Positions 12,485 to 54,816 of a DNA stretch of 58,498 nucleotides are shown piece by piece. Every line of letters starts with the position of its first letter. The first letter of the stretch is position 1. The stretch covers positions 1 to 58,498 of the forward strand of contig JANWYQ010000006.1 in assembly GCA_025055015.1 (NCBI GenBank). The letters run 5' to 3'. Below the pieces are notes generated by a model. It saw only the letters and a list, made by a program, of their open reading frames with translations. It did not search any database and was not told the DNA's origin. The translations under genes were made by a program, and so were the position numbers. The stretch comes from Caldilineales bacterium (GTDB lineage: Bacteria; Chloroflexota; Anaerolineae; JAAEKA01).

Positions 12485-12575
12485 AGCAGGAGGACAGGAG
12501 CGCTGAGGACGGCTCTCATCTCCGGGCGTTCGGCAGGTGGGGCGTGGGACCGGAGCCGCCGCGCCCGGCTGCGGG

Positions 12576-25659: not shown

Positions 25660-26766
25660 ATGCTGCTTCGTCGCACCTGGGCCGTGGCGCGCAAGGAGCT
25701 GCGCCACATCGCCCGCAACCGCCTCTCCCTCTTCCTGGTCACCCTGTCGCCGGCGCTGCTGCTCTTCCTGCTGGCCTACGTCTTCGCCTTCAACGTGGAC
25801 ACCGCCGACCTGGCCGTGTGGGACCTGAGCCGCACCTCGGCCAGCCGGCACTTCGTGGCTGCCCTCACCGGCGGGGAACACCTGCGGCTGGCTGCGCAGG
25901 CGACGAGCTACGACGAGATTGACCGCCTGTTGGTGGCCGGCACAGTGGACGCTGCCCTGGTCCTCCCGCCGGACTTCGCCGCGCGGCTGGGCCAGCCCCT
26001 GCAGCTCCAGATCGTGCTGGACGGCAGCAACCCCATCATCGCCAACCAGATCCTGGGGATCATCGGCCGCGCCGCTGCGGCCGCCATCGCCGACCTGCAG
26101 CCGGCGGGCGTCTTGGCGCCGCCCACCTTCGAGGTGCGCAGCCGCGTGTGGTACAACGAGGAATTGAAGAGCCAGGTGAGCATGGTGCCCGGGCTGATGG
26201 GCATCGTGCTCTCCCTGCCCGCCCTGGCCCTCAGCCTCAGCCTGACGCGGGAGAAGGAGCTGGGCACCTTGGAGGGGCTGATGGCGACGCCTCTGGAGGG
26301 CGTGGCCTACCTGTTGGGCAAGACTGCGGCCTACGTGGTCACCGGCTTGGTGGGCCTGTTGGCGAGCTGGCTGGTGGCCGTCGGCTGGTTCCGGGTGCCC
26401 TTTCGGGGCGACCTGGGGTTGCTGGTGTTGCTCACCGCGGCCTACTTCCTGGCCACCTGCGGCGTGAGCCTGTTGATCGCCAGCCGCATCCGCAGCCAGC
26501 AGGCCGCCATGCTCCTGGTGATGCTCATCTTCTTCGTGCCTAGCTTCTTCCTGGCGGGGCTGATTGACCCGATTGACCGCACGTCGCCCACGTCGGTGGC
26601 TCTGGCCATCCCCCTGCCCGCCACCCACTACATCGCCATCGCGCGCGGGCAGTTCCTCAAGGGCATCGGCCTGGAGGTGCTGGGCGCCGCAGCGCTGACC
26701 CTGCTGCTCATGGGCCTGCTGGCCCTGCTGATCAGCACCCTGGCCTTCCGCAAGCGCCTGGCCTAG
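25660..26766 (+). CDS. ABC-2 type transporter permease
   Basis: MLLRRTWAVARKELRHIARNRLSLFLVTLSPALLLFLLAYVF is the ABC-2 N-terminus. 6 TM. Confidence 0.8.
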   Translation: MLLRRTWAVARKELRHIARNRLSLFLVTLSPALLLFLLAYVFAFNVDTADLAVWDLSRTSASRHFVAALTGGEHLRLAAQATSYDEIDRLLVAGTVDAALVLPPDFAARLGQPLQLQIVLDGSNPIIANQILGIIGRAAAAAIADLQPAGVLAPPTFEVRSRVWYNEELKSQVSMVPGLMGIVLSLPALALSLSLTREKELGTLEGLMATPLEGVAYLLGKTAAYVVTGLVGLLASWLVAVGWFRVPFRGDLGLLVLLTAAYFLATCGVSLLIASRIRSQQAAMLLVMLIFFVPSFFLAGLIDPIDRTSPTSVALAIPLPATHYIAIARGQFLKGIGLEVLGAAALTLLLMGLLALLISTLAFRKRLA

Positions 26767-26783: not shown

Positions 26784-27908
26784 ATGTTGCTGCGCACCTG
26801 GCAGGTGGTCGTCAAAGAGCTGTTGCATCTGCGCCGGGATCGGGTGCTTACCCTGTTCCTCTTCCTCTTTCCCACCCTGCAGCTGGTGCTGGTGGCGCAG
26901 ACCGCGGGCGCGGCGGTGGGCAACCTCCCCCTGGCCGTTTGGGACCAGGACCACAGCGCGCTCAGCCGCCGCGTGGTGCAGGCCCTGGACAACACCCCGG
27001 AGCTCACCCTCGCCTACCGGCCGGCGTCCATGGCCGAGGTGCGCAGCCTGCTGGACCGCGGCCTGGCCGCTGTGGCCGTGATCATCCCGCCGGGGTTCGC
27101 GGCCGATCTGCTGAACCCCTCCGGCTCGCCAGCGGTTCAGGTGTTGGTGGACGGCTCCAACGTCTCGGCCGGCAGCGCGGCCCTGGCCGCAGCCGAGGGC
27201 GCCGTGGAGGACGCGGTGCGGCGCTACCTGGCGACCGCTGCGGCCCTCCCATACCCTGCGGCAGCGCCGGCGGACCTTCGGCCCCTGGTGCGCTTCAACC
27301 CGGAGCTCAACGGCAAGTTCGTGGCCATCCCCGGCCTGCTGGCGTTTGTGGTGTACCAGGTGGCCATTGTGGTGGCGGCGGTGACCATCGTGCGCGAGCG
27401 GGAGTTGGGCACCCTGGAGCAGCTGGCCGTCTCGCCCGTGCGGGGCGTGGAGATCCTGACAGGCAAGGCCATTCCGGCCATCGGCGTGGCCATGCTCAAC
27501 TTTGCAGTGCTGCTGGCCGTGGTGACCCGGGTGTTCCACATCCCCATGCGCGGCTCGTTGCCCCTGTTGGTCGGCCTCACCGCCCTCTTCGTGACGGCCG
27601 AGGTCGGCGTGGGGCTCATGGTGTCGTCCCTCTCGCGCACGCAGCAACAGGCGGTGTTGCTGGTGTTTCCCCTGGCCATGGTGGACCTAGCCCTCTCCGG
27701 CTACCTGGTGCCGGTGGAGAGCATGCCCGCCGGCCTGCGAGCCCTCTCGCTCTTCTCGCCCCTGCGCCACTACATGCGCATCCTCAAGGACATCATGCTC
27801 AAGGCCGCCGACCTGAGCACCCTGTGGCCGAGCGCGCTGGCCCTGGCAGCCTTGGCGCTGGTCGTCGGCCTGTTGGCGCTGCGCAACGTGGCCCGCAACT
27901 TCGAGTAG
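26784..27908 (+). CDS. ABC-2 type transporter permease (paralog)
   Basis: MLLRTWQVVVKELLHLRRDRVLTLFLFLFPTLQLVLVAQT, paralogous to the previous gene. Confidence 0.8.
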   Translation: MLLRTWQVVVKELLHLRRDRVLTLFLFLFPTLQLVLVAQTAGAAVGNLPLAVWDQDHSALSRRVVQALDNTPELTLAYRPASMAEVRSLLDRGLAAVAVIIPPGFAADLLNPSGSPAVQVLVDGSNVSAGSAALAAAEGAVEDAVRRYLATAAALPYPAAAPADLRPLVRFNPELNGKFVAIPGLLAFVVYQVAIVVAAVTIVRERELGTLEQLAVSPVRGVEILTGKAIPAIGVAMLNFAVLLAVVTRVFHIPMRGSLPLLVGLTALFVTAEVGVGLMVSSLSRTQQQAVLLVFPLAMVDLALSGYLVPVESMPAGLRALSLFSPLRHYMRILKDIMLKAADLSTLWPSALALAALALVVGLLALRNVARNFE

Positions 27909-27913
27909 GCGGC

Positions 27914-28878
27914 ATGGATTCCGATGTCGTCATCCAAGCGGAGCGCTTGACCCGCCGCTTCGGCCCGGTGACAGCCGTGAACGAGCTGAGCCTGGCCGTG
28001 CGCCGCGGGGAGATCTTCGGCCTGGTGGGCCCCGACGGCGCCGGCAAGACCACGGCCATCCGCATGTTGGCCGGGGTGATGGCGCCCACCGGCGGCCGCG
28101 CGGCCGTGGCCGGCTTCGACACCGTGCGCCAGGCCGAGGCGGTCAAGCGCCGCATCGGCTACATGGCTCAGCAGTTCAGCCTCTACGGCGACCTGAGCGT
28201 GCAGGAGAACCTCGACTTCTACGCCGACCTCTTCGGCGTGCGCGGGGCCGAGCGCCGCCAGCGCAGCCAACGGCTGCTGCGCTTCGCCCGCTTGGAGGCC
28301 TTTACTGACCGCCGCGCCGCCGCCCTCTCCGGCGGCATGAAGAAGAAGCTGGCCCTGGCCTGCGCCCTGATCCATCAGCCGGAGGTGCTCTTCCTGGACG
28401 AGCCCACCACCGGCGTGGACCCCGTCAGTCGCCGCGAGTTCTGGGACATCCTGGCCGAGCTCCACGTGGCCGGGGTCACCATCCTAGTAAGCACGCCCTA
28501 CATGGACGAGGCGGAGCGCTGCTCGCGCGTGGGGCTGATGTATGCCGGCCGCCTGTTGGTGTGCGACACGCCGGACGCGCTGCGGGCCTCCATCCCCGGC
28601 CATCTGCTGGCCTTCCGGCCACAGCCGCTGGACGCGGCCGGCGGTCCATCTGGCAGCAGCATCGGCCTGATCCGCCGGGCGGAGACGGTGGCCGTCGGCC
28701 TGCCCGGCGTGCTGGAGGTTCAGGCCTACGGCGACCTGGTGCACGTCTTCGTGGACGACGCCGAGCGCCGCGGGCCGGAGCTGGCCGCCGCGCTGGCCAC
28801 ACACGGCGTCCAGGCGGCCGACCTGCGCCGCGTCCAGCCGCGCATGGAGCAGGCCTTCACCTGGCTGATCCGCCACCT

Positions 28879-28882
<4 letters not shown>
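27914..28882 (+). CDS. ABC transporter ATP-binding protein
   Basis: Walker A GLVGPDGAGKTT, signature LSGGMKKKLALA, Walker B LFLDEPTTGVD. Start at MDSDVVIQAERL within track ORF 26939..28882. Confidence 0.9.
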
Positions 28883-29817
<935 letters not shown>

Positions 29818-29853
29818 CGCTCCCGCAGCGACGATCGGCGGAGTTTGATTTTT

Positions 29854-29880
29854 CACGGCGCCGGCCTCTTTGGCGCCGTG
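29854..29880 (+). other. Perfect 9-bp stem hairpin in the intergenic gap between the ABC ATPase and HlyD genes
   Basis: CACGGCGCC-ggcctcttt-GGCGCCGTG, preceded by TTTTT. Possible intra-operon processing or attenuation signal. Confidence 0.3.
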
Positions 29881-29910
29881 AAGTGCCCGGGTAGCCGGGA
29901 CACTGCACCA

Positions 29911-31275
29911 ATGACGAAAAAAACATCGCTTCTCCTTCCTCTGTTCCTCCTGTTAGTCGCCGGTGGGCTGGCTGCCTGCCGCGCCAACCTGCCCCCTCCG
30001 TTGGCCGACCTGGGGCCGGCAGCCGGCGCCGCGACGGCCGCCGCGCTGCGCGCCACCGGCATGGTCGAGGCGGAGCACGTGACCGTCTCCAGCGAGCTCA
30101 CCGGCCGCGTCGTCCAGCTCCTGGTGGCCGAGGGCGACACTGTCGAGGCCGGCCAGGCGCTGGCCGTGTTGGACGACCGCGTGCTGCGGGCCCAAGCGGT
30201 CCAGGCGGACGCCGCAGTGGCCCGCGCCCAGGCGCAGCTCCAGCTGGTGTTGAGCGGCGCGCGGCCGGAGGAGCTGGCCCACGCCCGCGCGCGCGTGGCT
30301 CACGCCGAGGCAGCGGCCGAGGCTGCGCGGCTGGGCTGGGAAGACGCGCAGCGGCTGCGGGACAACCGCCAGGAGCTGGAGCTAAAGCTCATCGAGGCGG
30401 AGACAGCGGCGGCCGCCGCCCAACACCGCGCCGCCGCCGCCCGGCTGGCCGCCGAGGCCGCCGACCTGGAGCGGGACCTCTGGGGCCGCGTCACCGAGCT
30501 GCTGGCCCAGGGCGTGGAGGTGACCCTGCCCATCGGCGGCACCGTGCGCGTGGACGCGCCCGCCGAGCGCGACCGCGCCAACACCCAGTGGAACCTGGCC
30601 GGCCAGCGGGCCTGGGAGGCGTGGCAGGCCGCCTATGCCGCCGAGGAGGCTGCCCGCGCGGCCCAGACCGCCCTGGCCGACCTGCGCCGCCAGGCCGAAC
30701 GGCCTATCGCCGAGACCGCGGCCGTCCACCAGGCCGAGGCCGCCTATCGCCAGGCCCTGGCCGCCGTGGAGCAGGCGCGGGCTGCCCTCCAGGCTCTGGA
30801 GGAAGGCGCCACTGCCCAGCAGATCGAGCTGGCGCGGCAGGCGTTGGCCCAAGCCCAGGCGGCGCGCGCCGCCCTGGACGTCCCCTTGAGCAAGGCGCGA
30901 GTGACAGCCCCTGCCTCCGGCTTGATCAGCGCGCTGGCCGTGCGCGAGGGGGAGGTCGCCGCTGCCGGCAGGCCCCTTCTGCAGATCGTCCGGCTGGACC
31001 CGGTCACCCTCACCGTGTACGTGCCGGAGGCAGACCTTGGGCGGGTCTGGATCGGCCAGCCCGTGCGGGTCACCGTCAACTCCTTCCCCGGCCGGACCTT
31101 CCGGGGGACTGTGACGGCCATCGCCGATCGGGCCGAGTTCACCCCCAAGAGCGTGCAAAGCGCTCAGGCGCGGCTCAGCACCGTGTTCGCCGTGGAGATC
31201 ACCCTGCCCAACCCCGACGGGGCGCTCAAGCCCGGCATGCCCGCCGATGCCCTGTTCCAGGAGGCCGCGCCATGA
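29911..31275 (+). CDS. HlyD-family membrane fusion (periplasmic adaptor) protein
   Basis: Lipoprotein-like N-terminus (LLVAGGLAAC), long Ala/Gln/Arg coiled-coil, C-terminal beta-barrel (RVWIGQPVRVTVNSFPGRTFRGTVTAIADRAEFTPKSVQSAQ...). Confidence 0.8.
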   Translation: MTKKTSLLLPLFLLLVAGGLAACRANLPPPLADLGPAAGAATAAALRATGMVEAEHVTVSSELTGRVVQLLVAEGDTVEAGQALAVLDDRVLRAQAVQADAAVARAQAQLQLVLSGARPEELAHARARVAHAEAAAEAARLGWEDAQRLRDNRQELELKLIEAETAAAAAQHRAAAARLAAEAADLERDLWGRVTELLAQGVEVTLPIGGTVRVDAPAERDRANTQWNLAGQRAWEAWQAAYAAEEAARAAQTALADLRRQAERPIAETAAVHQAEAAYRQALAAVEQARAALQALEEGATAQQIELARQALAQAQAARAALDVPLSKARVTAPASGLISALAVREGEVAAAGRPLLQIVRLDPVTLTVYVPEADLGRVWIGQPVRVTVNSFPGRTFRGTVTAIADRAEFTPKSVQSAQARLSTVFAVEITLPNPDGALKPGMPADALFQEAAP

Positions 31276-32612
31276 AAAAGCTCCTCGCCGTTGCGCTGAC
31301 CGCGCTGCTGCTGGGTGCCGCGGCCCTGGTGATCGGCCTGCAGGCGGCGCCCCAGGCCACGCAGGCCGCATGGACGGCCTTGGGCTTGCCCCCTGCGCCC
31401 CTGGAGCAGGCCTCGCGGCTGCTGTCGGCCGAGCCCCCGTCTACGCCCCCGCCCGCTGGGATCGTCCTGGCCGCGGGCACCGTGGAGGCGGAGGAGGTGA
31501 CCGTGGCGGCCGAGACGGCGGGGCGTGTGGTGGCCGTGCTGGTCTCCGAGGGAGAGGCGGTGACGGCCGGCCAGCCGCTGGTGCAGCTGGACGATAGCTT
31601 GTTGCGGGCGCGGCTGGTTGAAGCCGACCGGGCGGTGGAAATGGCCCGCGCCAACCTGGCGGTGGTTCAGGCTGAGCCGCAGCCCGCCCACGTGGCAGCC
31701 GCCCGCGCCCAGGTGAGCCAGGCCCAAGCCGCCTTGGCGGGCGCACAGCAGGCCCTGGCCGACGCCCAGGCCGCGCTGGAGAGCCCCTTGGCGCTGGAGG
31801 CCCAGATCAACAGCGCCGCGGCCCGCGTGGCCCTGCTGCGCCGCCAAGTGGAGCAGGCGCGCGCCCAGCAGGCGGCCGCGGCAGTCCTGCGCCAGGCAGC
31901 GGCCCGCGACAGCAGCGACCAGGGCAAGACCCAGGCGGCCATGTACGAGAAGCAGGAGGCAGCCGCGGCCCAGCAGGTTGCCGCCGCCCAGGCTGAGCTG
32001 CAGGGCGCCCAGCGCGCCCTGGCGTACCTGCGCCGGATGCGGGAGGCGCCGCTGGCGCTGGAGGTGCAGGTGCGGGCGGCCGAGCAGGCAGTGGCGGTGG
32101 CCGAGGCGGCTCTGGCAGTCGCCCAGGCCGAGCTGGCGCTGGTGGAGGCCGGCCCGCGGCCTGAGGCGGTGGCAGTGGCCGAGGCGCAGGTGGCCGAGGC
32201 TGAGGCAGCCCGTGGGGTGCTGGAGGCCCAGCTCGCCCAGACTGTCCTCTACAGCCCGCTGGACGGCGTGGTCACCCAGGTGGCGGTGCGCAGCGGCGAG
32301 ATGGCCGCGCCGGCCAGCCCGCTGCTGAAGGTGAGCCGGCTGGACCGGGTCACCGTTACCGCCTACGTGCCCGAGGCGGAGATCGGTCGGGTGCGGGTGG
32401 GCCAGCCGGCGCGCGTGCGCGTGGACGCCCATCCCGGTCGCGCCTTTCTGGGCGCGGTTACCTACATCTCCCCCCGCGCTCAGTTCACCCCGCGCAGCGT
32501 GCAGACCGCCGAGGAGCGGGCCAAGACCGTGTTCGCCGTGCGCATCACCCTGTCCAACCCCGACCAAGCCCTTAAGCCGGGCATGCCTGCCGACGTGGAG
32601 ATCGGCCCGTAG
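31272..32612 (+). CDS. HlyD-family membrane fusion protein (paralog)
   Basis: MKKLLAVALTALLLGAAALVIG..., coiled-coil, RVRVGQPARVRVDAHPGRAFLGAVTYISPRAQFTPRSVQTAEE. Overlaps the previous stop. Confidence 0.8.
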   Translation: MKKLLAVALTALLLGAAALVIGLQAAPQATQAAWTALGLPPAPLEQASRLLSAEPPSTPPPAGIVLAAGTVEAEEVTVAAETAGRVVAVLVSEGEAVTAGQPLVQLDDSLLRARLVEADRAVEMARANLAVVQAEPQPAHVAAARAQVSQAQAALAGAQQALADAQAALESPLALEAQINSAAARVALLRRQVEQARAQQAAAAVLRQAAARDSSDQGKTQAAMYEKQEAAAAQQVAAAQAELQGAQRALAYLRRMREAPLALEVQVRAAEQAVAVAEAALAVAQAELALVEAGPRPEAVAVAEAQVAEAEAARGVLEAQLAQTVLYSPLDGVVTQVAVRSGEMAAPASPLLKVSRLDRVTVTAYVPEAEIGRVRVGQPARVRVDAHPGRAFLGAVTYISPRAQFTPRSVQTAEERAKTVFAVRITLSNPDQALKPGMPADVEIGP

Positions 32613-32673
32613 GGTTTGCGCCTTTCCGGCCCGCCGGTTACAATCGCGCGCTGTGCAGCCCAAAGGACCATCC

Positions 32674-32754
32674 ATGCGGAACCTCAGCCGTGCCTGTCGA
32701 GTCTTAAATAATCGGGAAACAGCGCGGGCCCCCAGCACCTCATCATGGCCGTGA
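32674..32754 (+). CDS. Candidate 26-aa peptide (MRNLSRACRVLNNRETARAPSTSSWP): possible RiPP precursor or leader/uORF of the kinase gene
   Basis: ATG preceded by AAAGGA at 7-nt spacing. Lies in the only sizeable gap (32613-32744) of the locus and overlaps the kinase start by 10 nt. Too short to appear in the ORF track. No homology evidence. Confidence 0.2.
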   Translation: MRNLSRACRVLNNRETARAPSTSSWP

Positions 32755-33626
32755 ACCCCGTGAACGGCGCTTGGGACTTCTCTTTCGCCGTCGGCGGATT
32801 GACCATCGCCCTAGCGTCCGACGACCGCCCCTTGCTCGAGGCCTTGGCCAGGCGGTATGAGCCGTGGCTGGTAGAGGGGCCGTCGCTCTGCCGGGTGCAG
32901 GTTCGCTGCGGGCAGGGGCAGCGCATGCCCAACCGACCCAGCCCTGCAGCCTCCTTCGACCAGGGCCGCGCGTGCCATCTCCGGGCCCCCGGCTACCACG
33001 GCGTGATCGCCGCCGACGGCTGCAGCGGAACCTTGGAGCTGGCCGTCGCCGACGAGGCCGACGCCGACTACTTCCTGCGCGCGGTGCTGGCAGTGTTAGC
33101 CTTCGAGGCAGGCGGCCTGCTGGTGCATGCGGCCGGCTTCCTGCGCCGCGGCCGGGCCGTGCTGTTGACCGGCCGCTCTGGCATCGGCAAGTCCACCTCG
33201 GTGCGGGTGTCGGCCGGCCTGCCCGACACTGTGGCCCTGGGCGACGACCTGATCCTGTTGATGCCGACGGCCGACGGCTGGTGGGCCCACGGCACTCCGT
33301 TCTGGAACCCGGAGGCGCCGGCTGCGCTGCGCATCGGCCAGACCGCCTCAGGGCCGTTGGCGGGCCTCTTTCGGCTGGCCCAGGACCGCCGGGACTGGGT
33401 CCAGCCGCTGAGCGCGGGGCAGCTGGTGGCCGGGCTCATGAGCGACCTGCCCATCGTGCCGCTGGATACGGTCCGCGCGTCCCAGGCCTTTGCGCTGTTG
33501 GCCCGCCTGGCGCGGACGGTGGCGACAGGCCAGCTGCACTTTCGGCCAACGCCTGACTTTTGGAGCGTGCTCGATGAGTTCATCCTTTCCTCTGTCCCTG
33601 TCCAGCCGCATCAGGCGCCGCAGTGA
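32745..33626 (+). CDS. HPr kinase/phosphorylase C-terminal-domain-like P-loop kinase (HprK-related)
   Basis: RAVLLTGRSGIGKSTSV P-loop followed by GLPDTVALGDDLILL matches the HprK C-domain pattern (GxSGxGKS ... hydrophobic-DD). Confidence 0.65.
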   Translation: MAVNPVNGAWDFSFAVGGLTIALASDDRPLLEALARRYEPWLVEGPSLCRVQVRCGQGQRMPNRPSPAASFDQGRACHLRAPGYHGVIAADGCSGTLELAVADEADADYFLRAVLAVLAFEAGGLLVHAAGFLRRGRAVLLTGRSGIGKSTSVRVSAGLPDTVALGDDLILLMPTADGWWAHGTPFWNPEAPAALRIGQTASGPLAGLFRLAQDRRDWVQPLSAGQLVAGLMSDLPIVPLDTVRASQAFALLARLARTVATGQLHFRPTPDFWSVLDEFILSSVPVQPHQAPQ

Positions 33627-33870
33627 TGTCGTCTCGGACGTGGTCGGCGGGGAGGCCGTGTTGGTCTCCCCGAAGCAGGCGCGGGTGCGCATGCTCAACG
33701 AGACGGGCAGCCTCATCTGGCGTCTGGCGGACGGCGCCACGACCCTACAGCAGATGGCCGAGGCCCTTGCTGCCGAGTACGCCGTCACCGTAGAGGACTG
33801 TTCCCCCGATGTCGTCGCCTTCGCCCAAGAGCTCCTGGCGGCCGGCGTTGTGGAGCTGGTGAACGATTGA
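33574..33870 (+). CDS. PqqD-family protein (RiPP recognition element-like peptide chaperone)
   Basis: DVVGGEAVLVSPKQARVRMLNETGSLIWRLADGATTLQQMAEALAAEYAVTVEDCSPDVVAFAQELLAAGVVELV fits the PqqD/RRE profile. The start overlaps the kinase gene by about 50 nt. An alternative GTG start at 33640 is possible. Confidence 0.65.
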   Translation: MSSSFPLSLSSRIRRRSDVVSDVVGGEAVLVSPKQARVRMLNETGSLIWRLADGATTLQQMAEALAAEYAVTVEDCSPDVVAFAQELLAAGVVELVND

Positions 33871-33900: not shown

Positions 33901-36423
33901 ATGCGACGAGAGCGCCGAACCCATCAGGGATGGCTACCAACGGCCGTCCGGTGGACCGCGGCGGCGGTGTTGGCGCTGACCCTGCTCCCCGGCGGGGCGG
34001 CCAACGCTGCGCCGGCCACGACAATGCCGGCCGAGCCGCGCGTCGCTAACGTGGGCTGTCCCTTTGTGGTGGTGCCCTTCTGTCTGAAGCTGATCGTGGC
34101 CGAGGACGGGTTGGTGCGGGTTACAACTGCCGACCTCCAGGGAGCGGGATGGAACGTGCAGACGGTGGACCCGCGCTCCTTCAGCCTGAGCAGCCAGGGC
34201 CGCGCCGTTGCCCTGCGGCTGCAGGACGGCGGCGACGGCCGCTTGGACCCCGGCGATTTCGTGGAGTTCTACGGCCAGCGCTTCCGCGGGACGCAGATGG
34301 ATGAGAAGTACACCGACGACAACGTGTACTGGCTGGCGGCCGGCGGCTCGGCCGGCCCGCGCATGGCCGTGGTGGATGCGACGCCGGGGTCTGCGCCGGA
34401 TGCGCCTGCCAGCTTCTGGACCACCCACCACGCCGAGGAGAACCACCACTGGTTCACCCACAACGTGCTGGGGTGGCCCACGCAGGACACGTGGTGGTGG
34501 ACCAACATGTACGTCTCCGGCCCGCGCTCGGTAACCCCCTGGCAACTGCCCACGGTGCTGCCGGCCCCTGCCTCGGAGGTGTACACCGCGACCCTGCAGA
34601 TCGAGGTGGCCCCGCGGCGCCAGTACGGCGCGCATCGCTTCCAGGTCTTCCTCAACGACGCCGCCGGCCAGCCCCTGCTGGACGACACCTTCTTCGGCCA
34701 TGTCCCGCGCGTGGCCCAGGTGGACTTCCCCGGCAGCCTGCTGCGCAACGGCGAGAACGTCGTCCTGATCCACATCTTCAATCAGCCCTCCGGCAAGACG
34801 GTCGCAGAGGCCGGCGCTGCGGCGGCGATGCGCCCCCCGTGGGTGGACGAGGCGCTGAACGCGCTGCAGGGCGGGCCACCTGAGAAGGCTGCCGACGGCA
34901 CCTTCGAGTGGATGTATGCGAACTACTACACGGTGCGCTACCGCCGGCTCTACCGGGCTGTGAACGACGAGATCGTGTTCTCGGCCGACCAGCCGGGGAC
35001 ACAGATCTTCACGCTGCACGGCTTCACCGACCGCAACGTGCGCGTCTACGACATCACCAACCCCCTGCGGCCGGCGCGGCTCGGCGGGGTCCAGGTGACC
35101 CCAGCCGGCGACGGCACCTTCCGGGCGCGCCTACAGGTGACGGCGGAGGCCGACAGCCGGTATCTGGCCCTCACCGAGGCCAAAGCCAAGCGGCCAAAGC
35201 GGGTTGAGGCGCCGCTGGCCTCTGCCGTTCGCTCTCCCAACAACGGCGCCGACTGGATCATCATCACCCACGCTGACTTCCTGCCTCAGGCTCGGCGGCT
35301 GGCGGCCTATCGGGCGGCCCAGGATGGCTTCCGCACGGCGGTGGTCAACGTGGCCGAGCTGTACGAGCAGTTCAACCACGGCATCTTCCACCCCGAGGCT
35401 ATCCGCCGCTTCGTCGCCTTCGCCGTGCAGGCGTGGCAGCCGCCGGCGCCGCAGTACATCGTGCTCCTGGGCGACGGCAACTGGAACTTCAAGGGCTACG
35501 GCACGGCCACCTATGGCCAGCCCGATCCCAACTGGATCCCGCCCTATCTGGTATGGGAGGACCCGTGGCAAGGAGAGGTACCCAGCGACAACGCTTTCGT
35601 CAACCTGGACGACGACCCCCTGCCCGAGCTAGCCATCGGCCGTCTACCGGCCCGCTCCCTGGCTGAAGCTACCACCTTGGTGGACAAGATCATTGCCTAC
35701 GAGGCCCAGCGGCGCAGCGCGACCCCCTGGCGCCAGCGCATGTTCTACGTCACCGACAACAGCGACAGCTCCGGCGACTATCCCTCCGTGGCCGAGAACG
35801 TCATTCGCACGGCGCTGCCGCCGTATGTCGAGCCCGTGCGCAACTACCTGGGGGTCACCTTCCCCATAGATCAGGTCGCACGGGCCACCGACTTCTTGGT
35901 GGACCAGGTGAACGCCGGCGTTTCTGTGCTGACCTACATGGGTCACGGCTCGGTCAACTGGTGGGCCGTCGAGGGCCTGTGGAACACCAGCTACACCTCG
36001 CGGCTGAGCAACGCCGATCGCCTGCCGCTGGTGGTCACCTTGAACTGCTTGGACGGCTACTTCGTCCACGGCAACCCCGGCCTGCAGTCCGTGGCCGAAG
36101 AGATGTTGCGCCATCCCGGCGGCGGTTCCGTGGCGGCCTGGTCGCCCACCGGCCTAGGCACGACGTACATCGAAAACATCCTGAACATGGGGCTGTTGGA
36201 AGCCTTTTTTCAGCTAGACATTCGACGGATCGGCCCGGCCACCATGCATGCCAAGGCTCATCTCTACAACATCATCGGCGACAGCACGCCGTACGAGACG
36301 GCGCTGCTGCACACCATGACCGTCTTCGGCGACCCTGCGCTCAGGCTCAGCCTGCCCACATGGCGGGTGCGGTTGCCGGTGGCCATGAGGGGCGTCACCC
36401 CACCGAAGGCGACGCAGCCCTAG
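33901..36423 (+). CDS. Secreted peptidase family C25 (gingipain-like clan CD cysteine peptidase) multidomain protein
   Basis: Signal peptide. C-terminal half has DWIIITHADFLPQARRLAAYR, YIVLLGDGNW, catalytic His in LTYMGHGSVNWW and Cys in VVTLNCLDGYF about 35 aa later (C25 His/Cys dyad spacing). Confidence 0.75.
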   Translation: MRRERRTHQGWLPTAVRWTAAAVLALTLLPGGAANAAPATTMPAEPRVANVGCPFVVVPFCLKLIVAEDGLVRVTTADLQGAGWNVQTVDPRSFSLSSQGRAVALRLQDGGDGRLDPGDFVEFYGQRFRGTQMDEKYTDDNVYWLAAGGSAGPRMAVVDATPGSAPDAPASFWTTHHAEENHHWFTHNVLGWPTQDTWWWTNMYVSGPRSVTPWQLPTVLPAPASEVYTATLQIEVAPRRQYGAHRFQVFLNDAAGQPLLDDTFFGHVPRVAQVDFPGSLLRNGENVVLIHIFNQPSGKTVAEAGAAAAMRPPWVDEALNALQGGPPEKAADGTFEWMYANYYTVRYRRLYRAVNDEIVFSADQPGTQIFTLHGFTDRNVRVYDITNPLRPARLGGVQVTPAGDGTFRARLQVTAEADSRYLALTEAKAKRPKRVEAPLASAVRSPNNGADWIIITHADFLPQARRLAAYRAAQDGFRTAVVNVAELYEQFNHGIFHPEAIRRFVAFAVQAWQPPAPQYIVLLGDGNWNFKGYGTATYGQPDPNWIPPYLVWEDPWQGEVPSDNAFVNLDDDPLPELAIGRLPARSLAEATTLVDKIIAYEAQRRSATPWRQRMFYVTDNSDSSGDYPSVAENVIRTALPPYVEPVRNYLGVTFPIDQVARATDFLVDQVNAGVSVLTYMGHGSVNWWAVEGLWNTSYTSRLSNADRLPLVVTLNCLDGYFVHGNPGLQSVAEEMLRHPGGGSVAAWSPTGLGTTYIENILNMGLLEAFFQLDIRRIGPATMHAKAHLYNIIGDSTPYETALLHTMTVFGDPALRLSLPTWRVRLPVAMRGVTPPKATQP

Positions 36424-36500
36424 CGCACGCAGCGCGCCACAGCCCCAGCAGAGCGGCTACGCGCCGCCTGCCCTCAACGGCGACAGAAAGTCCATAGACC

Positions 36501-37631
36501 ATGTCCTTTGTCTTTGTTCCCTCTCGACGCTTGCGATCCCTGAGCGCCGTGGTGGCTGCTTTTTGGCTGGCGGCCGCTGTGGCCATGCCAGCCTTCGCCG
36601 CAACCCAGCCGCCCAACGCCATCACGCTGCTCTACTTCCGCGCCACGCCGCGGCCTGACAGCGTGTATCTCAAGTGGGAGACCGGGGCAGAGGTTGACCA
36701 CGGCGGCTTCCTTCTCTATCGCAGCACCGTGCGCCAGGACCCCAACCGCGGCGTCCGCCTGGCCGACTTCCCCCCGCGCGGGGACGTGGGCGGCGCCGTG
36801 TACGAGTACACCGACACCAGCGTCACCCCAGGCACAACCTACTACTACAGCTTGGTGGCTGTGGACGTGCGCGGCAACGAGGTGACCTACTTCACCGATC
36901 CGCCGGGCGTGACGCCGGGGCAGCCCACCGCCACGCCCACCCCCACCGCCACGCCTGTCCCGACGGCCACGCCCACAGCTACGGCAGTCCCGGCCACGCC
37001 AACGCCGCTGCCCACGGCCACGCCCGTGCCGACGACGGCGGCCGGCGCCTCCGGCAGCGAGGGCCAGGCTCCCACGGCCACGCCTGTGGCGCCGCCGACG
37101 CCCACCAGCCCGGCCCCGGCCGTGCCGCCGCCTCCCGCGCCGACCCCTGTTCCTCCGCCCCCTGCGGCCGGCGTTACCCCTGCGCCGACGCAGCCCGTCG
37201 TCGTTCAGCCCCCTGCGCCTCCCGCAGCCGACACGCCGCCCAGCGCGCCGGCCGCCCCTGCACCCGCGGTGGAGACGCCCACTGAACCTCCGGCGGTGGA
37301 CACCCCTGAGCCGACGCCTGTGGTGCCGCCGGAGAGCGCTTCTCCTTCGCCGCCCGACGCTGCCCCGGCTCAACCGGTCGCTCCTCCTGCCGAGCAGCCC
37401 GGCCAGCCCCAAGCGCTGACCCAGGCCCCCACGCCCACGCCGGCCGCAGTAGCCCAGGTGCCGGCTCGCCAGCCGCGCGCGACCCCACGGCCCGGCGAGG
37501 GCAGCTCGAGCGCGGGTGGGGCGCGCGCCCTGGTGGCGGTGGTGGCGGCCGTGGCCCTGGGGGCGGCTGCCCTGTTGATCGCGCTGATCGTCGTCCTTTG
37601 GCTGCGCACACGGGGCGCTCAGGAGCCATGA
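36501..37631 (+). CDS. Secreted FN3-like domain protein with about 200-aa Pro/Thr/Ala-rich linker and C-terminal hydrophobic anchor
   Basis: Signal peptide. FN3-like fold (LKWETGAEVDHGGFLLYRS...TYYYSLVAVDVRGNEVTYF). PT-rich low-complexity linker. C-terminal ALVAVVAAVALGAAALLIALIVVLWLRTRGAQEP (TM plus basic tail). Confidence 0.7.
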   Translation: MSFVFVPSRRLRSLSAVVAAFWLAAAVAMPAFAATQPPNAITLLYFRATPRPDSVYLKWETGAEVDHGGFLLYRSTVRQDPNRGVRLADFPPRGDVGGAVYEYTDTSVTPGTTYYYSLVAVDVRGNEVTYFTDPPGVTPGQPTATPTPTATPVPTATPTATAVPATPTPLPTATPVPTTAAGASGSEGQAPTATPVAPPTPTSPAPAVPPPPAPTPVPPPPAAGVTPAPTQPVVVQPPAPPAADTPPSAPAAPAPAVETPTEPPAVDTPEPTPVVPPESASPSPPDAAPAQPVAPPAEQPGQPQALTQAPTPTPAAVAQVPARQPRATPRPGEGSSSAGGARALVAVVAAVALGAAALLIALIVVLWLRTRGAQEP

Positions 37632-39850
37632 CCCGGTCCGCTCGCCTCCTGTGGGGGTTGGTCGCGGCGACGGCCGGGCTGGCTGCCCTGATGTTTTTCG
37701 TTCTGCGCCAGCCTCCCAGCGGCGCAACGCAGGCGCCTGAGGCCGCTCTGCCTCTGAAGGTGGTCACGGAGCAAGCCGGGCTGACGGCCATCACGGCCGA
37801 GGACCTGCGGCGAGCCGGCCTGGACCCCGACCAGGTGCCGCCGGAGCAGTGGCAGCTACGCCGCGAGGATCGGGTGGTGCCGCTGTTGCCCCTGGGGCAA
37901 GGCAGGGGCCTGCGGTTGGTGTTCTACGCAACGCCTAGCGACAACCTCTACAGCCCGCAGCAGGTGTACTGGCTCGAGGCGGCGCCCGAGGGAGGAGCGC
38001 GGCCGGAGGTTCGCCCGCTGGACCTGGAGCCGGCCGCGGCTCAGGCCGTGATCACCGGCACGCTGTGGGTGGACTGGCAGCGTCAGTACAACTCCCGGCT
38101 ACCCGAAGACCCCGAGGACGTTCGCCCGCCCCATGCGGCCCGCCCGCTGCCCAACCGCTGGGTTGGGGACGCGCTCTTCGGCGGCCGCGAGCTCAGCCTG
38201 CCCTTCTCGGCGCCCGATCTGGCGCCGGGGCCGGCCCAGCTGCATTTGCGCCTGTGGGCCAACACGGCCTCGCCCGCCTTCAACCCCGACCATCGGGTCA
38301 AGGTGCTGCTCAACGGCCAGGAGGTGGCTGAGGGCGTCCACGACGGCCAGGGCTTCTGGTCCATCGTGGCCGACGTGCCTGCCGGCCTGCTGCAGCCGGG
38401 GGAGAACACCTTGCTGCTGCGCGCGCCGGGGGACACCGGCGCCCGCGTGGAGCAGGACAACCCGGCCTGGATGAAGCTCACCTATCCCCGCGCGCTGACC
38501 GCACAGAACGGCAGCCTCGAGCTGGACTATCGCGGCGGCGGAGTCGCGGTGGCGGGCCTTCCGCCGCGCGAGACGGTGCTGGTGTGGGACGTGACGGAGC
38601 CCGACCGGCCGCTGCACCTGGCCTCCGAGGAGCCGCTGCGGAGCGACGCCCGCGGCCGCTTGGCTTTTGCCTATCCGGCGGAGGCCGGGGGAGAGCAGCG
38701 CCTGGCGGTGGCAGCGGTGTCGGCGCTGTTGCGACCGGCGCTGATCGCCGCCCCACAGCCGGAGAGCCTGGCGAGCCTGCCGGGCGCGGACTACCTGCTG
38801 ATCGGTCCCACCGACCTGCTGGCGGCCGCGCAGCCCCTGCTGGAGCGACGCCAGGCCCAAGGGCTGACGCCGCTGGCCGTCAACGTGGAGGCCGTCTACG
38901 AGCAGTTCGGCGCGGGCCGCCGCGGGCCGGAGGCGATCCGCGCCTTCCTGCGCCATGCGGTGGAGACTTGGGCGCTTCCCCCGCGCTTTGTGGTGCTGGT
39001 CGGCGACGCCAGCTACGATCCCAGGGGCTACACCGGCGAGGCAGCGCGCACTGCAGACCGCGTGCCGACCTGCCTGGTGGACACCTACTTCGTGGGGGAG
39101 ACGGCCAGCGACCACTGCTACGCCGACCTGGACGACGACCTGGCGCCGGAGCTGGCCGTGGGCCGCCTGCCGGCGCGCTCGGCCGACCAAGTGCAGGCCT
39201 TCGCAGCCAAGCTCGTCGCCTACGAGCAGACGCCCGCCGACGCCGACTGGCTGCGTCGCGCCTTACTGGTGGCCGACAAGGAGGCGGAGTTCCTGAATGC
39301 CTCCCAACGCATTGCCGAGGAGGCCTTGCAGCCGGCCGGCTACCAGACCCAGCTGCTGGACCTAGCCGACCCGGCCTACGCCCAGCCGGCCGACGCGCGC
39401 CAGACGCTGCTGGCCGCGCTGGACGCCGGCGTTGGCCTGATCAACTACTCCGGCCACGGCAGCCCGCGCTGGTGGGCCAGTGAGCTGCTGAGCAGCGAGG
39501 ACGCCCTCGGCCTGCGCAACCGCGAGCGCCTTCCCCTCGTCACGGCCATGACTTGCCTCACGGGCTACTTCCACCACCCCACCACCCTCTCCCTGTCGGA
39601 GGCGCTGTTGTGGGCGGAAGGGGGCGCCGCGGCCGCCTTCATGCCCTCCAGCGAGGGGGTGACGGTGGAGCAGCTGCCGGTGGCCCTCAGCTTTTACCAG
39701 CACCTGTTGAGCGGCCGGTACACTACCCTGGGGGAGGCCATCCGAGACACCAAGCGCGACCTGGTGCAGGCCAACGCCACCAACGCCGACATGATCCACA
39801 CCTTCAACCTGCTGGGGGATCCGGCCATGCGGCTGCCCTTTGTGCCGTGA
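37628..39850 (+). CDS. Peptidase family C25 (gingipain-like) multidomain protein, paralog of 33901..36423
   Basis: AGGAG SD, ATG overlapping the upstream stop. N-terminal TM/signal. DYLLIGPTDLL, FVVLVGDASYDP, INYSGHGSPRWW (His) and VTAMTCLTGYF (Cys). Shares a VYWL(A/E)A N-domain motif with the first C25 protein. Confidence 0.75.
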   Translation: MTRSARLLWGLVAATAGLAALMFFVLRQPPSGATQAPEAALPLKVVTEQAGLTAITAEDLRRAGLDPDQVPPEQWQLRREDRVVPLLPLGQGRGLRLVFYATPSDNLYSPQQVYWLEAAPEGGARPEVRPLDLEPAAAQAVITGTLWVDWQRQYNSRLPEDPEDVRPPHAARPLPNRWVGDALFGGRELSLPFSAPDLAPGPAQLHLRLWANTASPAFNPDHRVKVLLNGQEVAEGVHDGQGFWSIVADVPAGLLQPGENTLLLRAPGDTGARVEQDNPAWMKLTYPRALTAQNGSLELDYRGGGVAVAGLPPRETVLVWDVTEPDRPLHLASEEPLRSDARGRLAFAYPAEAGGEQRLAVAAVSALLRPALIAAPQPESLASLPGADYLLIGPTDLLAAAQPLLERRQAQGLTPLAVNVEAVYEQFGAGRRGPEAIRAFLRHAVETWALPPRFVVLVGDASYDPRGYTGEAARTADRVPTCLVDTYFVGETASDHCYADLDDDLAPELAVGRLPARSADQVQAFAAKLVAYEQTPADADWLRRALLVADKEAEFLNASQRIAEEALQPAGYQTQLLDLADPAYAQPADARQTLLAALDAGVGLINYSGHGSPRWWASELLSSEDALGLRNRERLPLVTAMTCLTGYFHHPTTLSLSEALLWAEGGAAAAFMPSSEGVTVEQLPVALSFYQHLLSGRYTTLGEAIRDTKRDLVQANATNADMIHTFNLLGDPAMRLPFVP

Positions 39851-39876
39851 GCGCAGCGTTTGTCCCGCGCGACGGC

Positions 39877-39905
39877 TTGGCAGCATGGCGCGATGTGTAG
39901 ATAAT
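39877..39905 (+). promoter_or_regulatory. Sigma70-type promoter for the BY-kinase/O-antigen ligase genes: TTGGCA-17-GATAAT
   Basis: TTGGCAgcatggcgcgatgtgtaGATAAT in an AT-rich patch, about 35 nt upstream of the ATG at 39941. Confidence 0.4.
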
Positions 39906-39940
39906 GCATCTGTACCTCAGCGGAAAAAGAAGGAACTTTC

Positions 39941-41614
39941 ATGGAGCTGCGAGAATACGTAAACCTGCTGCGCAAGTGGCTGTGGTTGATCCTGGTAACG
40001 ACGGTTTCGGCAGCCATCATCGCTTTCTTCGTCAGCCGTGGCCAGACGCCCATCTACCAGGCCACGGCTACCGTGTTGATCAACCAAGCGCGGTCGCCCG
40101 TTCGGGGCACGGAGTACGCCGACATCCTCACCAGCGAGCGGGTGGCCCGCACCTACGCGGAGCTGCTCAAGGGGTGGCCTGTGCTGGAGGAAGCCGTGCG
40201 CAAGATGGGCTTCACCCAGGAGTTTCGTGAGCTGCAAAAGGCCTACCAGCTCAGCGTCAGCATCACCCCCATCCGCGACACGCAGCTGATCAACCTCCAG
40301 GTGCAGGCCAACGACCCAGCCTTGGCGGCCGAGCTGGCCAACACCCTCCCCGAGGTGTTCAAGGGGGTCAACCAGGCACGGCAGCGGGAGCGCTTCGAGA
40401 CCACCCGCAAGGAGCTGCAGGCGGAGCTGGCTGCGGTGGAGAAGGATATCGTCGCCACCCAGGAGGCGATCGCCCAGCTTTCCGAGTCGCAGTCGGCCGA
40501 GGACAAGGCGCAGGTGAGCCGCCTGCAGAGCGCGCTCAGGCGCTACGAGGCCACCTACAACTCCCTGCTGAACAGCCTGGCCGAGCTGCGGCTCACCGAG
40601 GCGCAGGCCACCGACAACGTGGTCCTGGCCACCCCTGCCCAGCCGCCCAAGAACCCGGTGCGGCCGCGCGTGCTGTTCAACACGCTGTTGGCGGCCATCG
40701 TCGGCGCCATGTTGGCGGTGGGCGTGGCGTTTTTGATCGAGTACCTGGACGACACCGTCAAGACCCCCGACGACGTGCGGGCCGTCAGCGGCCTGCCCAC
40801 CTTGGCCGCTGTGGTGGAGCTTGAGGCGGACACGCCGCAACAGCGCCTGGTGGCTTTGACTGCCCCGCGCTCGCCTGAGGCGGAAGCGTATCGGGTGTTG
40901 CGCACCAACCTGCAGTTCTCGTCGCTGGACAAACCGCTGCGCGCTCTGATGGTCACCAGCGCCGGGCCCGGCGAAGGGAAGAGCACCACGGCCACGAACC
41001 TGGCGGTGGTGTTTGCCCAGGCCGGCTCGCGCGTGCTGCTGGTGGACGCCGACCTGCGCCGGCCCAGCATCCACAGGCTGCTCCAGGTGCCCAACAACAC
41101 GGGTCTCACCACGGCTCTGCTGCAGGTGGGCAACCGGCCGGAGGACTTCGTGCAGGCCACGGCCCAGCAGAACCTCTCGGCCTTGACCACGGGCCCCATC
41201 CCCCCGAACCCGGCCGAGCTGTTGGGTTCGGCCCGCATGCACGACCTGCTCACCCATCTGAAAGAGCGCTACGACCTCGTGGTGGTGGACAGCCCGCCGG
41301 TGTTGGCCGTGGCCGACGCCACCATCCTCTCCAACCAGGCGGACGGGGTGTTGATGGTGGTCAGTGCAGGCGAGACCCGGTTCGAGATGCTGGCGCAGGC
41401 TCTGGAGCGCCTCACGGGCGTGGGGTCCCGGCCGTTGGGCGTGGTGCTGAACAAGCTGACGCCGGACAGCGGCGGCTCGTACTACTACTACTACTACGCC
41501 AGCCAATACCACAGCGGCGATGGGGCCGACGGCGGCGCTGCTCCGCCCTCGGCCGGCAACGGGAAGCTGCGCCGGCTGCGCTCGCCCAAGCCCAGCGGTC
41601 AGGCTACCACCTAG
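39941..41614 (+). CDS. Polysaccharide co-polymerase/tyrosine autokinase (Wzz + CapB/Wzc-like BY-kinase)
   Basis: Wzz-like N-terminus with TM. Walker A VTSAGPGEGKSTTATNLAVVFA. C-terminal tyrosine cluster YYYYYYASQY. Confidence 0.85.
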   Translation: MELREYVNLLRKWLWLILVTTVSAAIIAFFVSRGQTPIYQATATVLINQARSPVRGTEYADILTSERVARTYAELLKGWPVLEEAVRKMGFTQEFRELQKAYQLSVSITPIRDTQLINLQVQANDPALAAELANTLPEVFKGVNQARQRERFETTRKELQAELAAVEKDIVATQEAIAQLSESQSAEDKAQVSRLQSALRRYEATYNSLLNSLAELRLTEAQATDNVVLATPAQPPKNPVRPRVLFNTLLAAIVGAMLAVGVAFLIEYLDDTVKTPDDVRAVSGLPTLAAVVELEADTPQQRLVALTAPRSPEAEAYRVLRTNLQFSSLDKPLRALMVTSAGPGEGKSTTATNLAVVFAQAGSRVLLVDADLRRPSIHRLLQVPNNTGLTTALLQVGNRPEDFVQATAQQNLSALTTGPIPPNPAELLGSARMHDLLTHLKERYDLVVVDSPPVLAVADATILSNQADGVLMVVSAGETRFEMLAQALERLTGVGSRPLGVVLNKLTPDSGGSYYYYYYASQYHSGDGADGGAAPPSAGNGKLRRLRSPKPSGQATT

Positions 41615-41635
41615 GCGGGCCGCCCGGCTGCCTCT

Positions 41636-47491: not shown

Positions 47492-47520
47492 ATTATAGCG
47501 CAAGCAAATTGAGAAGTCAA
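47492..47520 (-). promoter_or_regulatory. Consensus sigma70 promoter for hppA: TTGACT-17-TATAAT, giving an about 245-nt leader
   Basis: Reverse complement of 47492-47520 reads TTGACTtctcaatttgcttgcgcTATAAT. It is back-to-back with the corA promoter. Confidence 0.55.
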
Positions 47521-47535
47521 ACACAAAGAGCGCAA

Positions 47536-47564
47536 TTGACACACGGTCAGAAAGCAAGCATAAT
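47536..47564 (+). promoter_or_regulatory. Sigma70 promoter for corA (second paralog): TTGACA-17-CATAAT
   Basis: TTGACAcacggtcagaaagcaagCATAAT, 35 nt upstream of the ATG at 47599. Confidence 0.55.
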
Positions 47565-47598
47565 ACGACCAGCGAAGTCCTGCCCCTGCGAGCGAGCC

Positions 47599-54609: not shown

Positions 54610-54682
54610 CGAGGGCACCGGTGCGTACCTCTGTGCCTGGCGATTACATGCGAAAGGAGGGGGATTTGTTCGCGCCGGTGCA

Positions 54683-54711
54683 AGTGTAGCGTTTTGGGAG
54701 GAGGGTGTCAA
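54683..54711 (-). promoter_or_regulatory. Sigma70-type promoter for the ECF sigma/anti-sigma operon: TTGACA-17-TACACT
   Basis: Reverse complement reads TTGACAccctcctcccaaaacgcTACACT, about 70 nt upstream of the GTG at 54609. It is preceded by a polypyrimidine (CT-rich) tract at 54712-54780. Confidence 0.4.
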
Positions 54712-54816
54712 GTGCGGGGTGGGAAGAGGGGAAGGGAAGAAAGATAGGAGAAGAGGGGGCTGCCGGAAGTAAGCGGTCAAGCGGTCTCCCTTGTCGGATC
54801 AAGATTTGCCTCGCAC

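Follow-up and report, generated by a model that had tools for sequence, protein, structure and literature searches.

An ScmC-family gene overlapping a PqqD gene

We analyzed a 58-kb contig (~70% GC; hereafter the window) from a metagenome-assembled genome (MAG) of a Caldilineales bacterium (Chloroflexota), and focus here on two overlapping forward-strand genes that encode a P-loop phosphotransferase-like protein of the ScmC family and a PqqD-type recognition element for peptides that are ribosomally synthesized and modified post-translationally (RiPPs). Coding frames were chosen by the G+C content of third codon positions (GC3) and then scanned against Pfam and NCBIfam; gene families reported as absent were looked for in every long open reading frame (ORF) with coding-like GC3 in the window (Pfam) and by hidden Markov model (HMM) and phmmer searches. 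The two genes are the first two cistrons of an operon conserved in the Caldilineales lineage. They form a genuine, conserved and selected pair, which is a variant of the catalogued ScmC/PqqD module without a radical SAM partner or a nearby precursor gene. The pair consists of:

32745-33626, forward strand: ScmC-family P-loop phosphotransferase-like protein, 293 amino acids (aa)
33574-33870, forward strand: PqqD-type RiPP recognition element protein (PF05402), 98 aa

Because GC3 is high (0.88 for the ScmC gene and 0.80 for the PqqD gene) and dN/dS against five orthologues stays below 0.42 (0.25-0.41 and 0.10-0.39, respectively), we consider both genes real and constrained. Both are intact in at least seven diverged genomes, with dS up to ~1.1. 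A preliminary description of this DNA, made from the sequence alone, had proposed that an HprK-like kinase is translationally coupled to a PqqD-type protein through an overlap of about 50 nt. The coupling of a kinase-like P-loop enzyme to a true PqqD/RiPP recognition element (RRE) protein is supported: the PqqD ORF begins with an ATG at 33574, ends at 33870 and overlaps the ScmC gene by 53 nt, the overlap being 32 nt in the orthologous loci. The PqqD protein is a true member of PF05402, which it matches over profile positions 1-67 of 67 with 69.2 bits (E = 4e-19; gathering cutoff 23.4). Its best NCBIfam match is the lasso-peptide type lasso_PqqD_Bac at 46 bits, below cutoff, and the match to ScmD (TIGR04248), at 32.6 bits, also lies below the respective cutoff of 100.

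The enzyme carries its P-loop (G143-RSGIGKST-151, nt 33171-33197) and its hydrophobic-DD motif (L165-GDD-168, nt 33237-33248) where they had been described. In an alignment of 24 relatives, His128, G143xSGxGK(S/T)T151 and D167-D168 vary little or not at all. The term HprK-like is appropriate for these motifs and for the fold, but not for the family. Specifically, an alignment-based AlphaFold2 model (pLDDT 93.8) adopts the fold of phosphoenolpyruvate carboxykinase (PEPCK) and HprK, and its best full-length structural matches are PEPCKs, aligned over 242 residues versus 120-142 for HprK, while sequence identity to HprK/P and PEPCK is 11-17%. At the level of sequence, Pfam gave no match to Hpr_kinase_C (PF07475) or Hpr_kinase_N (PF02603), generic P-loop families being the only ones matched at E ≤ 0.1, and the NCBIfam models HprK_rel_A and HprK_rel_B match over the P-loop alone (28-33 residues; E = 0.0014 and 0.0007). 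A PDB sequence search with the family profile returned mostly P-loop matches (ABC transporters) and one weak PEPCK match, with no HprK chain among the best 60 of 272 matches at E ≤ 10. The best NCBIfam match is instead ScmC (TIGR04249; 40.9 bits, below the cutoff of 125), and precomputed database annotation places the enzyme and every relative in Pfam PF27840 ScmC. Based on these sequence comparisons, the enzyme most probably belongs to the ScmC family (PF27840) and is not a member of the HprK family.

The ScmC protein of the window is identical to the NCBI entry "hypothetical protein NZ528_00470" and belongs to a Chloroflexota clade with a GTPFWN motif. A profile built from the 24 relatives, with 8000 candidates scored, puts the size of the family at no less than 6484 clusters at 90% identity; among the matches listed, every source name is "hypothetical protein". 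Of note, a single ORF in a Planctomycetota MAG (L016:9530-10819; L numbers denote loci in other genomes) matches both ScmC and the S24/S26-like peptidase known from the canonical ScmC cassettes (below) and is apparently a peptidase-ScmC fusion.

The conserved operon and its upstream region

Downstream of the pair, the conserved block comprises the following genes:

33901-36423, forward strand: C25 (gingipain/PorU-like) cysteine peptidase a (C25a), secreted, 840 aa (PF01364, E = 1.5e-84)
36501-37631, forward strand: protein with an FN3-like domain, a Pro/Thr (PT)-rich stalk and a transmembrane (TM) helix, 376 aa, no Pfam match
37628-39850, forward strand: C25 peptidase b (C25b), secreted or anchored (PF01364, E = 1.4e-84)
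39941-41614, forward strand: Wzz chain-length determinant fused to a BY-kinase-type ATPase (Pfam Wzz, GNVR, AAA_31)
41636-42913, forward strand: Wzy_C (O-antigen ligase/polymerase family) membrane protein (PF04932), the end of the conserved block

The gene order ScmC-PqqD-C25-FN3/PT-rich/TM protein (~365 aa)-C25 is common to seven syntenic Caldilineales loci (named L001, L006, L007-9, L033, L034 and L035), in which ScmC is 54-86% identical to that of the window, and the genes for an epimerase, Wzz/BY-kinase and Wzy_C usually come next. In 7/7 of these loci PqqD is followed by the C25a gene, with an overlap of 4 nt between the two in L001 and L034; similarly, the C25b gene, with its ATG at 37628, and the stop of the FN3 gene share 4 nt in the window, as they do in L006, L033 and L035. 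The Wzz/BY-kinase gene lies downstream in L001, L006 and L007 and the Wzy_C gene in L001, L006, L007 and L034. In the window, as in L006, the Wzy_C gene is followed by the genes for RsfS and NDK. A promoter-like sequence, TTGGCA-17-GATAAT (10/12 to consensus), is present at 39877-39905 in the 90-nt gap before the Wzz/BY-kinase gene, and the polysaccharide genes may be transcribed on their own as well.

The best solved relative of C25a is PorU (6za2), the C25 sortase of the type IX secretion system (T9SS), and its His (GHG) and Cys (NC) dyad aligns with that of RgpB. Both peptidases match the NCBIfam model T9SS_sortase in part (254.7 bits for C25a and 198.2 bits for C25b, with a cutoff of 420), and no T9SS component other than C25 was seen in the window scans. 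Synthesis genes for anionic lipopolysaccharide (A-LPS) are needed for PorU-mediated anchoring. The arrangement at 33901-42913, in which a PorU-like C25 pair with intact dyads stands beside Wzz/BY-kinase and Wzy_C, recalls T9SS sortase and A-LPS anchoring without a T9SS.

The 376-aa protein encoded between the two peptidases has a signal peptide, the FN3-like domain (36615-36920; a seven-strand sandwich in the AlphaFold2 model), the Pro/Thr-rich stalk, a conserved R-x-P-R-x-T-P-R-P stretch, the TM helix and a short basic tail. A word-indexed protein search with the FN3 domain alone gave no match. A more specific link had seemed to come from the presence of this ("WET") domain in giant C25 proteins of L013 and L015, and was downgraded after an exhaustive search in which the domain proved to be a repeat of very wide occurrence: 8810 representatives match at E ≤ 1e-3, most of which lie in multi-repeat proteins of 1000-6000 aa. 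C25 proteins as such also flank ScmC cassettes in L013, L015 and L026, which hints at a real functional link.

Upstream of the pair lie an exporter block and a short intergenic region:

24209-25645, forward strand: PD40-repeat protein
25660-26766 and 26784-27908, forward strand: two ABC-2 permeases (Pfam)
~27905-28882 and ~28900-29817, forward strand: two ABC ATPases (Pfam)
29845-31275 and ~31269-32612, forward strand: two HlyD-type adaptors (Pfam)
32613-32744: gap of 132 nt between the HlyD and ScmC genes
32616-32644, forward strand: promoter-like site TTGCGC-17 nt-TACAAT, read from the sequence, between the HlyD stop and the ScmC start
32675-32755, forward strand: 26-aa ORF MRNLSRACRVLNNRETARAPSTSSWP, which we do not regard as a conserved coding gene
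32676-32704, strand not assigned: nucleotide motif GCGGAAC-N18-GTCT in the 5' leader of ScmC

The duplicated ABC-2 exporter and two HlyD adaptors upstream, and the two C25 peptidases downstream, had been correctly recognized, and Pfam confirms them. The truly conserved partners of the pair turned out to be the C25-FN3/TM-C25 genes. The adjacency of the exporter extends beyond the window: in 6/7 syntenic loci the sequence upstream of ScmC ends in a HlyD C-terminus (KPGMPAD.EI), the exception being L035, which has a divergently transcribed Hexapep gene in its place. The TACAAT box (GGTTACAAT; GGCTACAAT in L033) lies upstream of the GCGGAAC motif and is kept in L001, L006, L033 and L034; the whole site scores 8/12 to consensus, and a consensus scan does not flag it. 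This box and the arrangement in L035 speak for transcription of the ABC-2/HlyD block as a unit of its own. Because of the adjacency in 6/7 loci and because canonical ScmC cassettes (below) include an ABC-2 exporter, the block may nevertheless serve in export, and its membership in the ScmC-PqqD system is uncertain.

The 26-aa ORF had been put forward as a candidate precursor for the pair. Comparison of the syntenic neighborhoods led us to reject it. Its frame is kept solely in L033, whose ScmC is 86% identical to that of the window; there, 14/24 aa are common and dN/dS is 1.6, versus 0.25 for ScmC and 0.10 for PqqD in the same pair of genomes. In the L006 equivalent the ATG is replaced by CTG and no stop precedes ScmC, the frame continuing into ScmC, while the bases conserved in L001 and L034 fall in another frame and nothing resembling the ORF was found upstream of ScmC in L007 and L035. 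What is conserved instead is the nucleotide motif: the spacing in GCGGAAC-N18-GTCT is identical in the window, L033, L006, L001 and L034, with a frame that differs between genomes, and the motif may be a regulator binding site. As an RNA element, the 5' leader of ScmC had no match in Rfam, and RNAalifold gave -2.6 kcal/mol with no useful covariation.

Precursor peptides beside homologous pairs

In line with the absence of a lasso cyclase and a B2 protease that had been reported near the pair, the window yielded no protein resembling Asn synthase or transglutaminase and none of the radical SAM type. Radical SAM, S24-like peptidase and NTP_transf_5 genes are likewise absent from both the window and the syntenic loci. 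We describe here what accompanies ScmC elsewhere.

Canonical cassettes occur in Acidobacteria and several other phyla (L025, L036 and L037, with variants in L010, L013, L015, L019, L022 and L026) in the order NTP_transf_5, ABC ATPase, ABC-2 permease, small ORF, S24/S26-like peptidase, ScmC, PqqD and radical SAM/SPASM, the radical SAM gene being present at all of the loci named. Their small ORFs constitute a precursor family of 53-74 aa with a K-x-Y-x-x-P leader and a Cys-containing core:

L025:9263-9445, Cys-type precursor
L036:8317-8487, Cys-type precursor
L037:8232-8393, Cys-type precursor
L026:8501-8704, Cys-type precursor
L013:9367-9558, Cys-type precursor
L015:10528-10701, Cys-type precursor
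L010:11587-11772, Cys-type precursor
L019:~9260-9487, Cys-type precursor

All eight end in Ser (RKNS, GAGS, AQGS, KINS, ICFS, GTPS, QKRS and RKSS). In lasso-peptide clusters, the precursor's C-terminal Ser is phosphorylated by HPr-kinase homologues before a nucleotidyltransferase attaches hexose (PMC8498205). Because in the canonical cassettes, too, a kinase-like enzyme occurs with a nucleotidyltransferase and a precursor that ends in Ser, C-terminal Ser phosphorylation followed by glycosylation is suggested for them, and by this analogy the obvious hypothesis is that canonical ScmC would phosphorylate the C-terminal Ser of its precursor.

The closest non-syntenic relatives of the window ScmC (35-47% identity) are in Chloroflexota loci L003-5 and L028-L032, in none of which a radical SAM, S24-like peptidase or NTP_transf_5 gene was found. 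These loci have a second precursor family of 39-46 aa, whose YxxP leader is lasso-like and whose core begins with a conserved AG[S/T]P that includes a hydroxyl residue. The gene lies just downstream of ScmC and PqqD, and a few kb away in L004:

L031:6921-7049, AG[S/T]P-type precursor, MENTQDRQVYEQPAVVYEAELEVRAGSPVGIPNPLDLFGEQK
L032:1624-1752, AG[S/T]P-type precursor
L030:1488-1628, AG[S/T]P-type precursor
L029:~810-947, AG[S/T]P-type precursor, AGTP variant
L004:9822-9941, AG[S/T]P-type precursor, MNEEPKKEYLKPEISHELDLETKAGSPLGDPIIDPLLDS

All relatives of the clade carry such a peptide wherever enough sequence is available. From their sequences, the AG[S/T]P peptides beside ScmC(/PqqD), in loci without radical SAM, cyclase or protease, are a candidate minimal RiPP family. 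The PqqD protein that adjoins the YxxP-leader precursor in L031 and L032 is orthologous to that of the window, and the window proteins are 47% (PqqD) and 37% (ScmC) identical to those of L031. The RiPP-type logic that had been attributed to the pair is thus borne out in homologous pairs, which stand beside small precursors with lasso-like YxxP leaders.

L031 and L004 have, in addition, a small protein encoded directly upstream of ScmC, with a signal or lipobox, one FN3-like domain and a C-terminal TM helix; the two are 40% identical to each other. In L004 this is a protein of 156 aa, which is an FN3-TM protein and not an S24-like peptidase, and its FN3-like domain is 31% identical to that of the 376-aa protein of the window.

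Proposed function and alternatives

Our tentative proposal is that ScmC and PqqD work together in the cytoplasm as a tailoring module of two proteins, in which PqqD guides a Ser/Thr phosphotransferase, and that the gene for the substrate lies elsewhere in the genome or within the operon. Specifically, PqqD as an RRE would bind an extended, leader-like segment of the substrate, probably of the YxxP type, and would present the bound substrate to ScmC; ScmC, as a P-loop phosphotransferase of PEPCK/HprK fold, would use ATP to phosphorylate a Ser/Thr hydroxyl; and if the substrate is an exported protein of the operon, the secreted C25 peptidases could then act on the product outside the cell. We propose a Ser/Thr phosphotransferase because of the PEPCK/HprK fold, the C-terminal Ser in 8/8 Cys-type precursors, the AG[S/T]P core and the parallel with the lasso kinases. 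Because the PqqD of the window is 47% identical to that of L031 and because the relatives of the clade carry the peptide, the substrate is most likely a peptide of the AG[S/T]P type whose gene lies outside the operon, elsewhere in the genome, and less likely an exported operon protein that is modified before secretion.

Several observations weigh against this proposal. The enzyme falls short of the NCBIfam ScmC equivalog cutoff (40.9 versus 125 bits), and the kinase activity predicted for the ScmC family is derived from a modelled fold and sequence motifs. HMMs for the Cys-type, leader-only and AG[S/T]P-type precursors gave no match in either the window or the seven syntenic loci. ScmC and PqqD reside in the cytoplasm and the C25 peptidases and FN3 domain outside it, so that direct cooperation needs an export step. 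Finally, no conserved Ser/Thr was found in the cytoplasmic tails of the FN3/TM proteins.

The closest catalogued system is SynChlorMet, with ScmC (PF27840; TIGR04249) and ScmD (TIGR04248). It shares with the window the adjacent PqqD-family gene and, by precomputed annotation, the enzyme family. The window proteins, however, score far below the equivalog cutoffs (40.9 versus 125 and 32.6 versus 100 bits), the radical SAM/SPASM protein, S24-like peptidase and Cys-rich, Ser-terminated precursor of SynChlorMet are absent from the window, and the pair is joined instead to C25 peptidases, an FN3/TM protein and polysaccharide genes. The view that the pair is not a described RiPP class therefore needs amending: it holds only in part, as the pair has already been catalogued bioinformatically as ScmC/ScmD of SynChlorMet. 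Literature searches returned no mention of SynChlorMet/ScmC, of an HPr kinase with radical SAM and an RRE, or of C25 with PqqD, nor any experimental characterization of ScmC or ScmD. Overall, the anatomy and RiPP-like logic of the preliminary description hold, whereas its family assignment, candidate precursor and degree of novelty do not.

Three other systems invite comparison. The HPr-kinase homologues and B1 proteins of lasso clusters (paeninodin, pseudomycoidin) likewise bring together a kinase-like P-loop enzyme and an RRE of the PqqD type, relatives of the window pair have YxxP leaders, and the Ser end of the Cys-type precursors together with NTP_transf_5 parallels Ser phosphorylation followed by glycosylation (PMC8498205); unlike these clusters, the window has no lasso cyclase, B2 protease or lasso-type precursor, and the HprK-related match of its enzyme covers the P-loop only (E ~1e-3). 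With HprK/P and PEPCK the window ScmC shares a PEPCK-like P-loop fold, the GxSGxGKS/T loop and a downstream hydrophobic-DD motif, but it lacks the HprK N-terminal domain, its N-terminal half resembling PEPCK, and has no HPr or catabolite-control context. With PorU, C25a and C25b share partial T9SS_sortase matches, the conserved catalytic His/Cys (in C25a) and the adjacency of Wzz and Wzy_C; they differ from it in scores below the cutoff of 420, in the Chloroflexota host, and in that no T9SS component was seen and no cargo with a C-terminal domain (CTD) of the T9SS type was identified in the window.

If the proposal holds, a very large family (at least 6484 clusters) gains a concrete predicted function, that of a PqqD-guided Ser/Thr phosphotransferase. 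Should the operon link be functional, RiPP-type recognition would be tied to assembly of the cell surface in Chloroflexota; should it not be, the locus remains a clear example of tailoring genes with their precursor encoded in trans. More speculatively, the whole operon could be a cell-surface maturation system, in which an RRE and kinase pair borrowed from RiPP biosynthesis marks a peptide or protein and the exported substrate is processed by the two PorU-like C25 transpeptidases or attached to the FN3/PT-rich anchor or to a Wzz/Wzy_C polysaccharide. We regard this as a long shot; if true, Chloroflexota would have an equivalent of anchoring by the T9SS sortase. In a milder version, ScmC alone could define a minimal new RiPP class of phosphorylated AG[S/T]P peptides in Chloroflexota.

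Among the alternatives, one is that the module is directed at a protein of its own operon, with ScmC and PqqD acting before export on the FN3/PT-rich/TM protein or a C25 proenzyme. Extended to the whole operon, this view has the PorU-like C25 peptidases cleave an anchored protein or transfer it onto a Wzz/Wzy_C polysaccharide, as in the T9SS sortase system. It would account for the tight operon with its 4-nt overlaps at PqqD/C25a and FN3/C25b, for the finding of a cis-encoded precursor in 0/7 syntenic loci and for the orthologous small FN3-TM protein directly upstream of ScmC in L004 and L031. It also agrees with the closeness of C25a, with its catalytic dyad, to PorU, with the Wzz and Wzy_C genes downstream in most loci and with the C25 neighbors of ScmC cassettes in L013, L015 and L026. 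However, L004 and L031 hold a separate precursor besides the FN3-TM protein, which argues that this protein is no stand-in for a precursor; the tails and N-termini of the FN3/TM proteins are not conserved and have no YxxP motif; a repeat as common as this FN3 domain (8810 representatives) makes its presence in giant C25 proteins weak evidence; and the C25 and FN3 domains lie on the opposite side of the membrane from ScmC and PqqD. To our knowledge, PqqD-type recognition proteins bind the leaders of small precursors and not exported proteins that bear signal peptides, which we also count against this alternative. On balance we consider it unlikely.

We are more skeptical of the idea that ScmC, as a P-loop NTPase, leaves its peptide or protein substrate unphosphorylated, being instead an ATP-dependent chaperone or gatekeeper, or an enzyme that adenylylates or phosphorylates a non-peptide acceptor such as a sugar or a lipid-linked polysaccharide intermediate, with PqqD as an adaptor only. 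PEPCKs, its best full-length structural matches (242 residues versus 120-142 for HprK), are small-molecule kinases, a FomB-type phosphonate kinase of NCBIfam weakly matches the P-loop region, and the operon includes polysaccharide genes. Conversely, in many phyla ScmC is found together with PqqD and ribosomal precursors, polysaccharide genes are missing from most ScmC loci, and conservation of the terminal Ser and of AG[S/T]P suggests that the acceptor is a hydroxyl of a peptide.

That the pair is an evolutionary remnant of an ScmC/PqqD/radical SAM or ScmC/PqqD/precursor cassette, which has lost its substrate and contributes little, appears very improbable: a precursor, radical SAM, S24-like peptidase and NTP_transf_5 are all absent from the window and the syntenic loci, as such a remnant would have it, but the selection data disfavor it, both genes being intact in at least seven diverged genomes with dN/dS of 0.1-0.4, and the catalytic motifs are invariant and the operon-head position and gene overlap conserved.

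The macrolactam ring of lasso peptides is closed by an Asp/Glu at positions 7-9. In the AG[S/T]P cores this residue is not conserved because the first acidic residue is mostly at position 12 (L030-L032), and at position 7 in L004 alone. The readings as a housekeeping HprK/P that serves carbon catabolite control and as a lasso-peptide cluster that is incomplete are refuted for the window by the family scans and have a negligible chance of being correct: the P-loop and DD do resemble HprK and the best NCBIfam match of PqqD is of the lasso B1 type, but there is no Hpr_kinase_C/N match in Pfam, the PDB search gave essentially P-loop matches, no HPr/ptsH-like gene was annotated in the window scans, and the 58 kb hold no lasso C or B2 genes and no lasso-type precursor.

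Two observations concern other parts of the window. A 1349-aa protein (49828-53877, reverse strand), encoded directly downstream of a gene for an extracytoplasmic function (ECF) sigma factor (53926-54780, reverse strand), joins a zf-HC2 anti-sigma motif at its N-terminus to alpha-2-macroglobulin domains (MG2, bait region and A2M), an unusual anti-sigma architecture. Genes for CorA-type Mg2+ transporters are present twice, at 11402-12610 (reverse strand) and 47509-48516 (forward strand).

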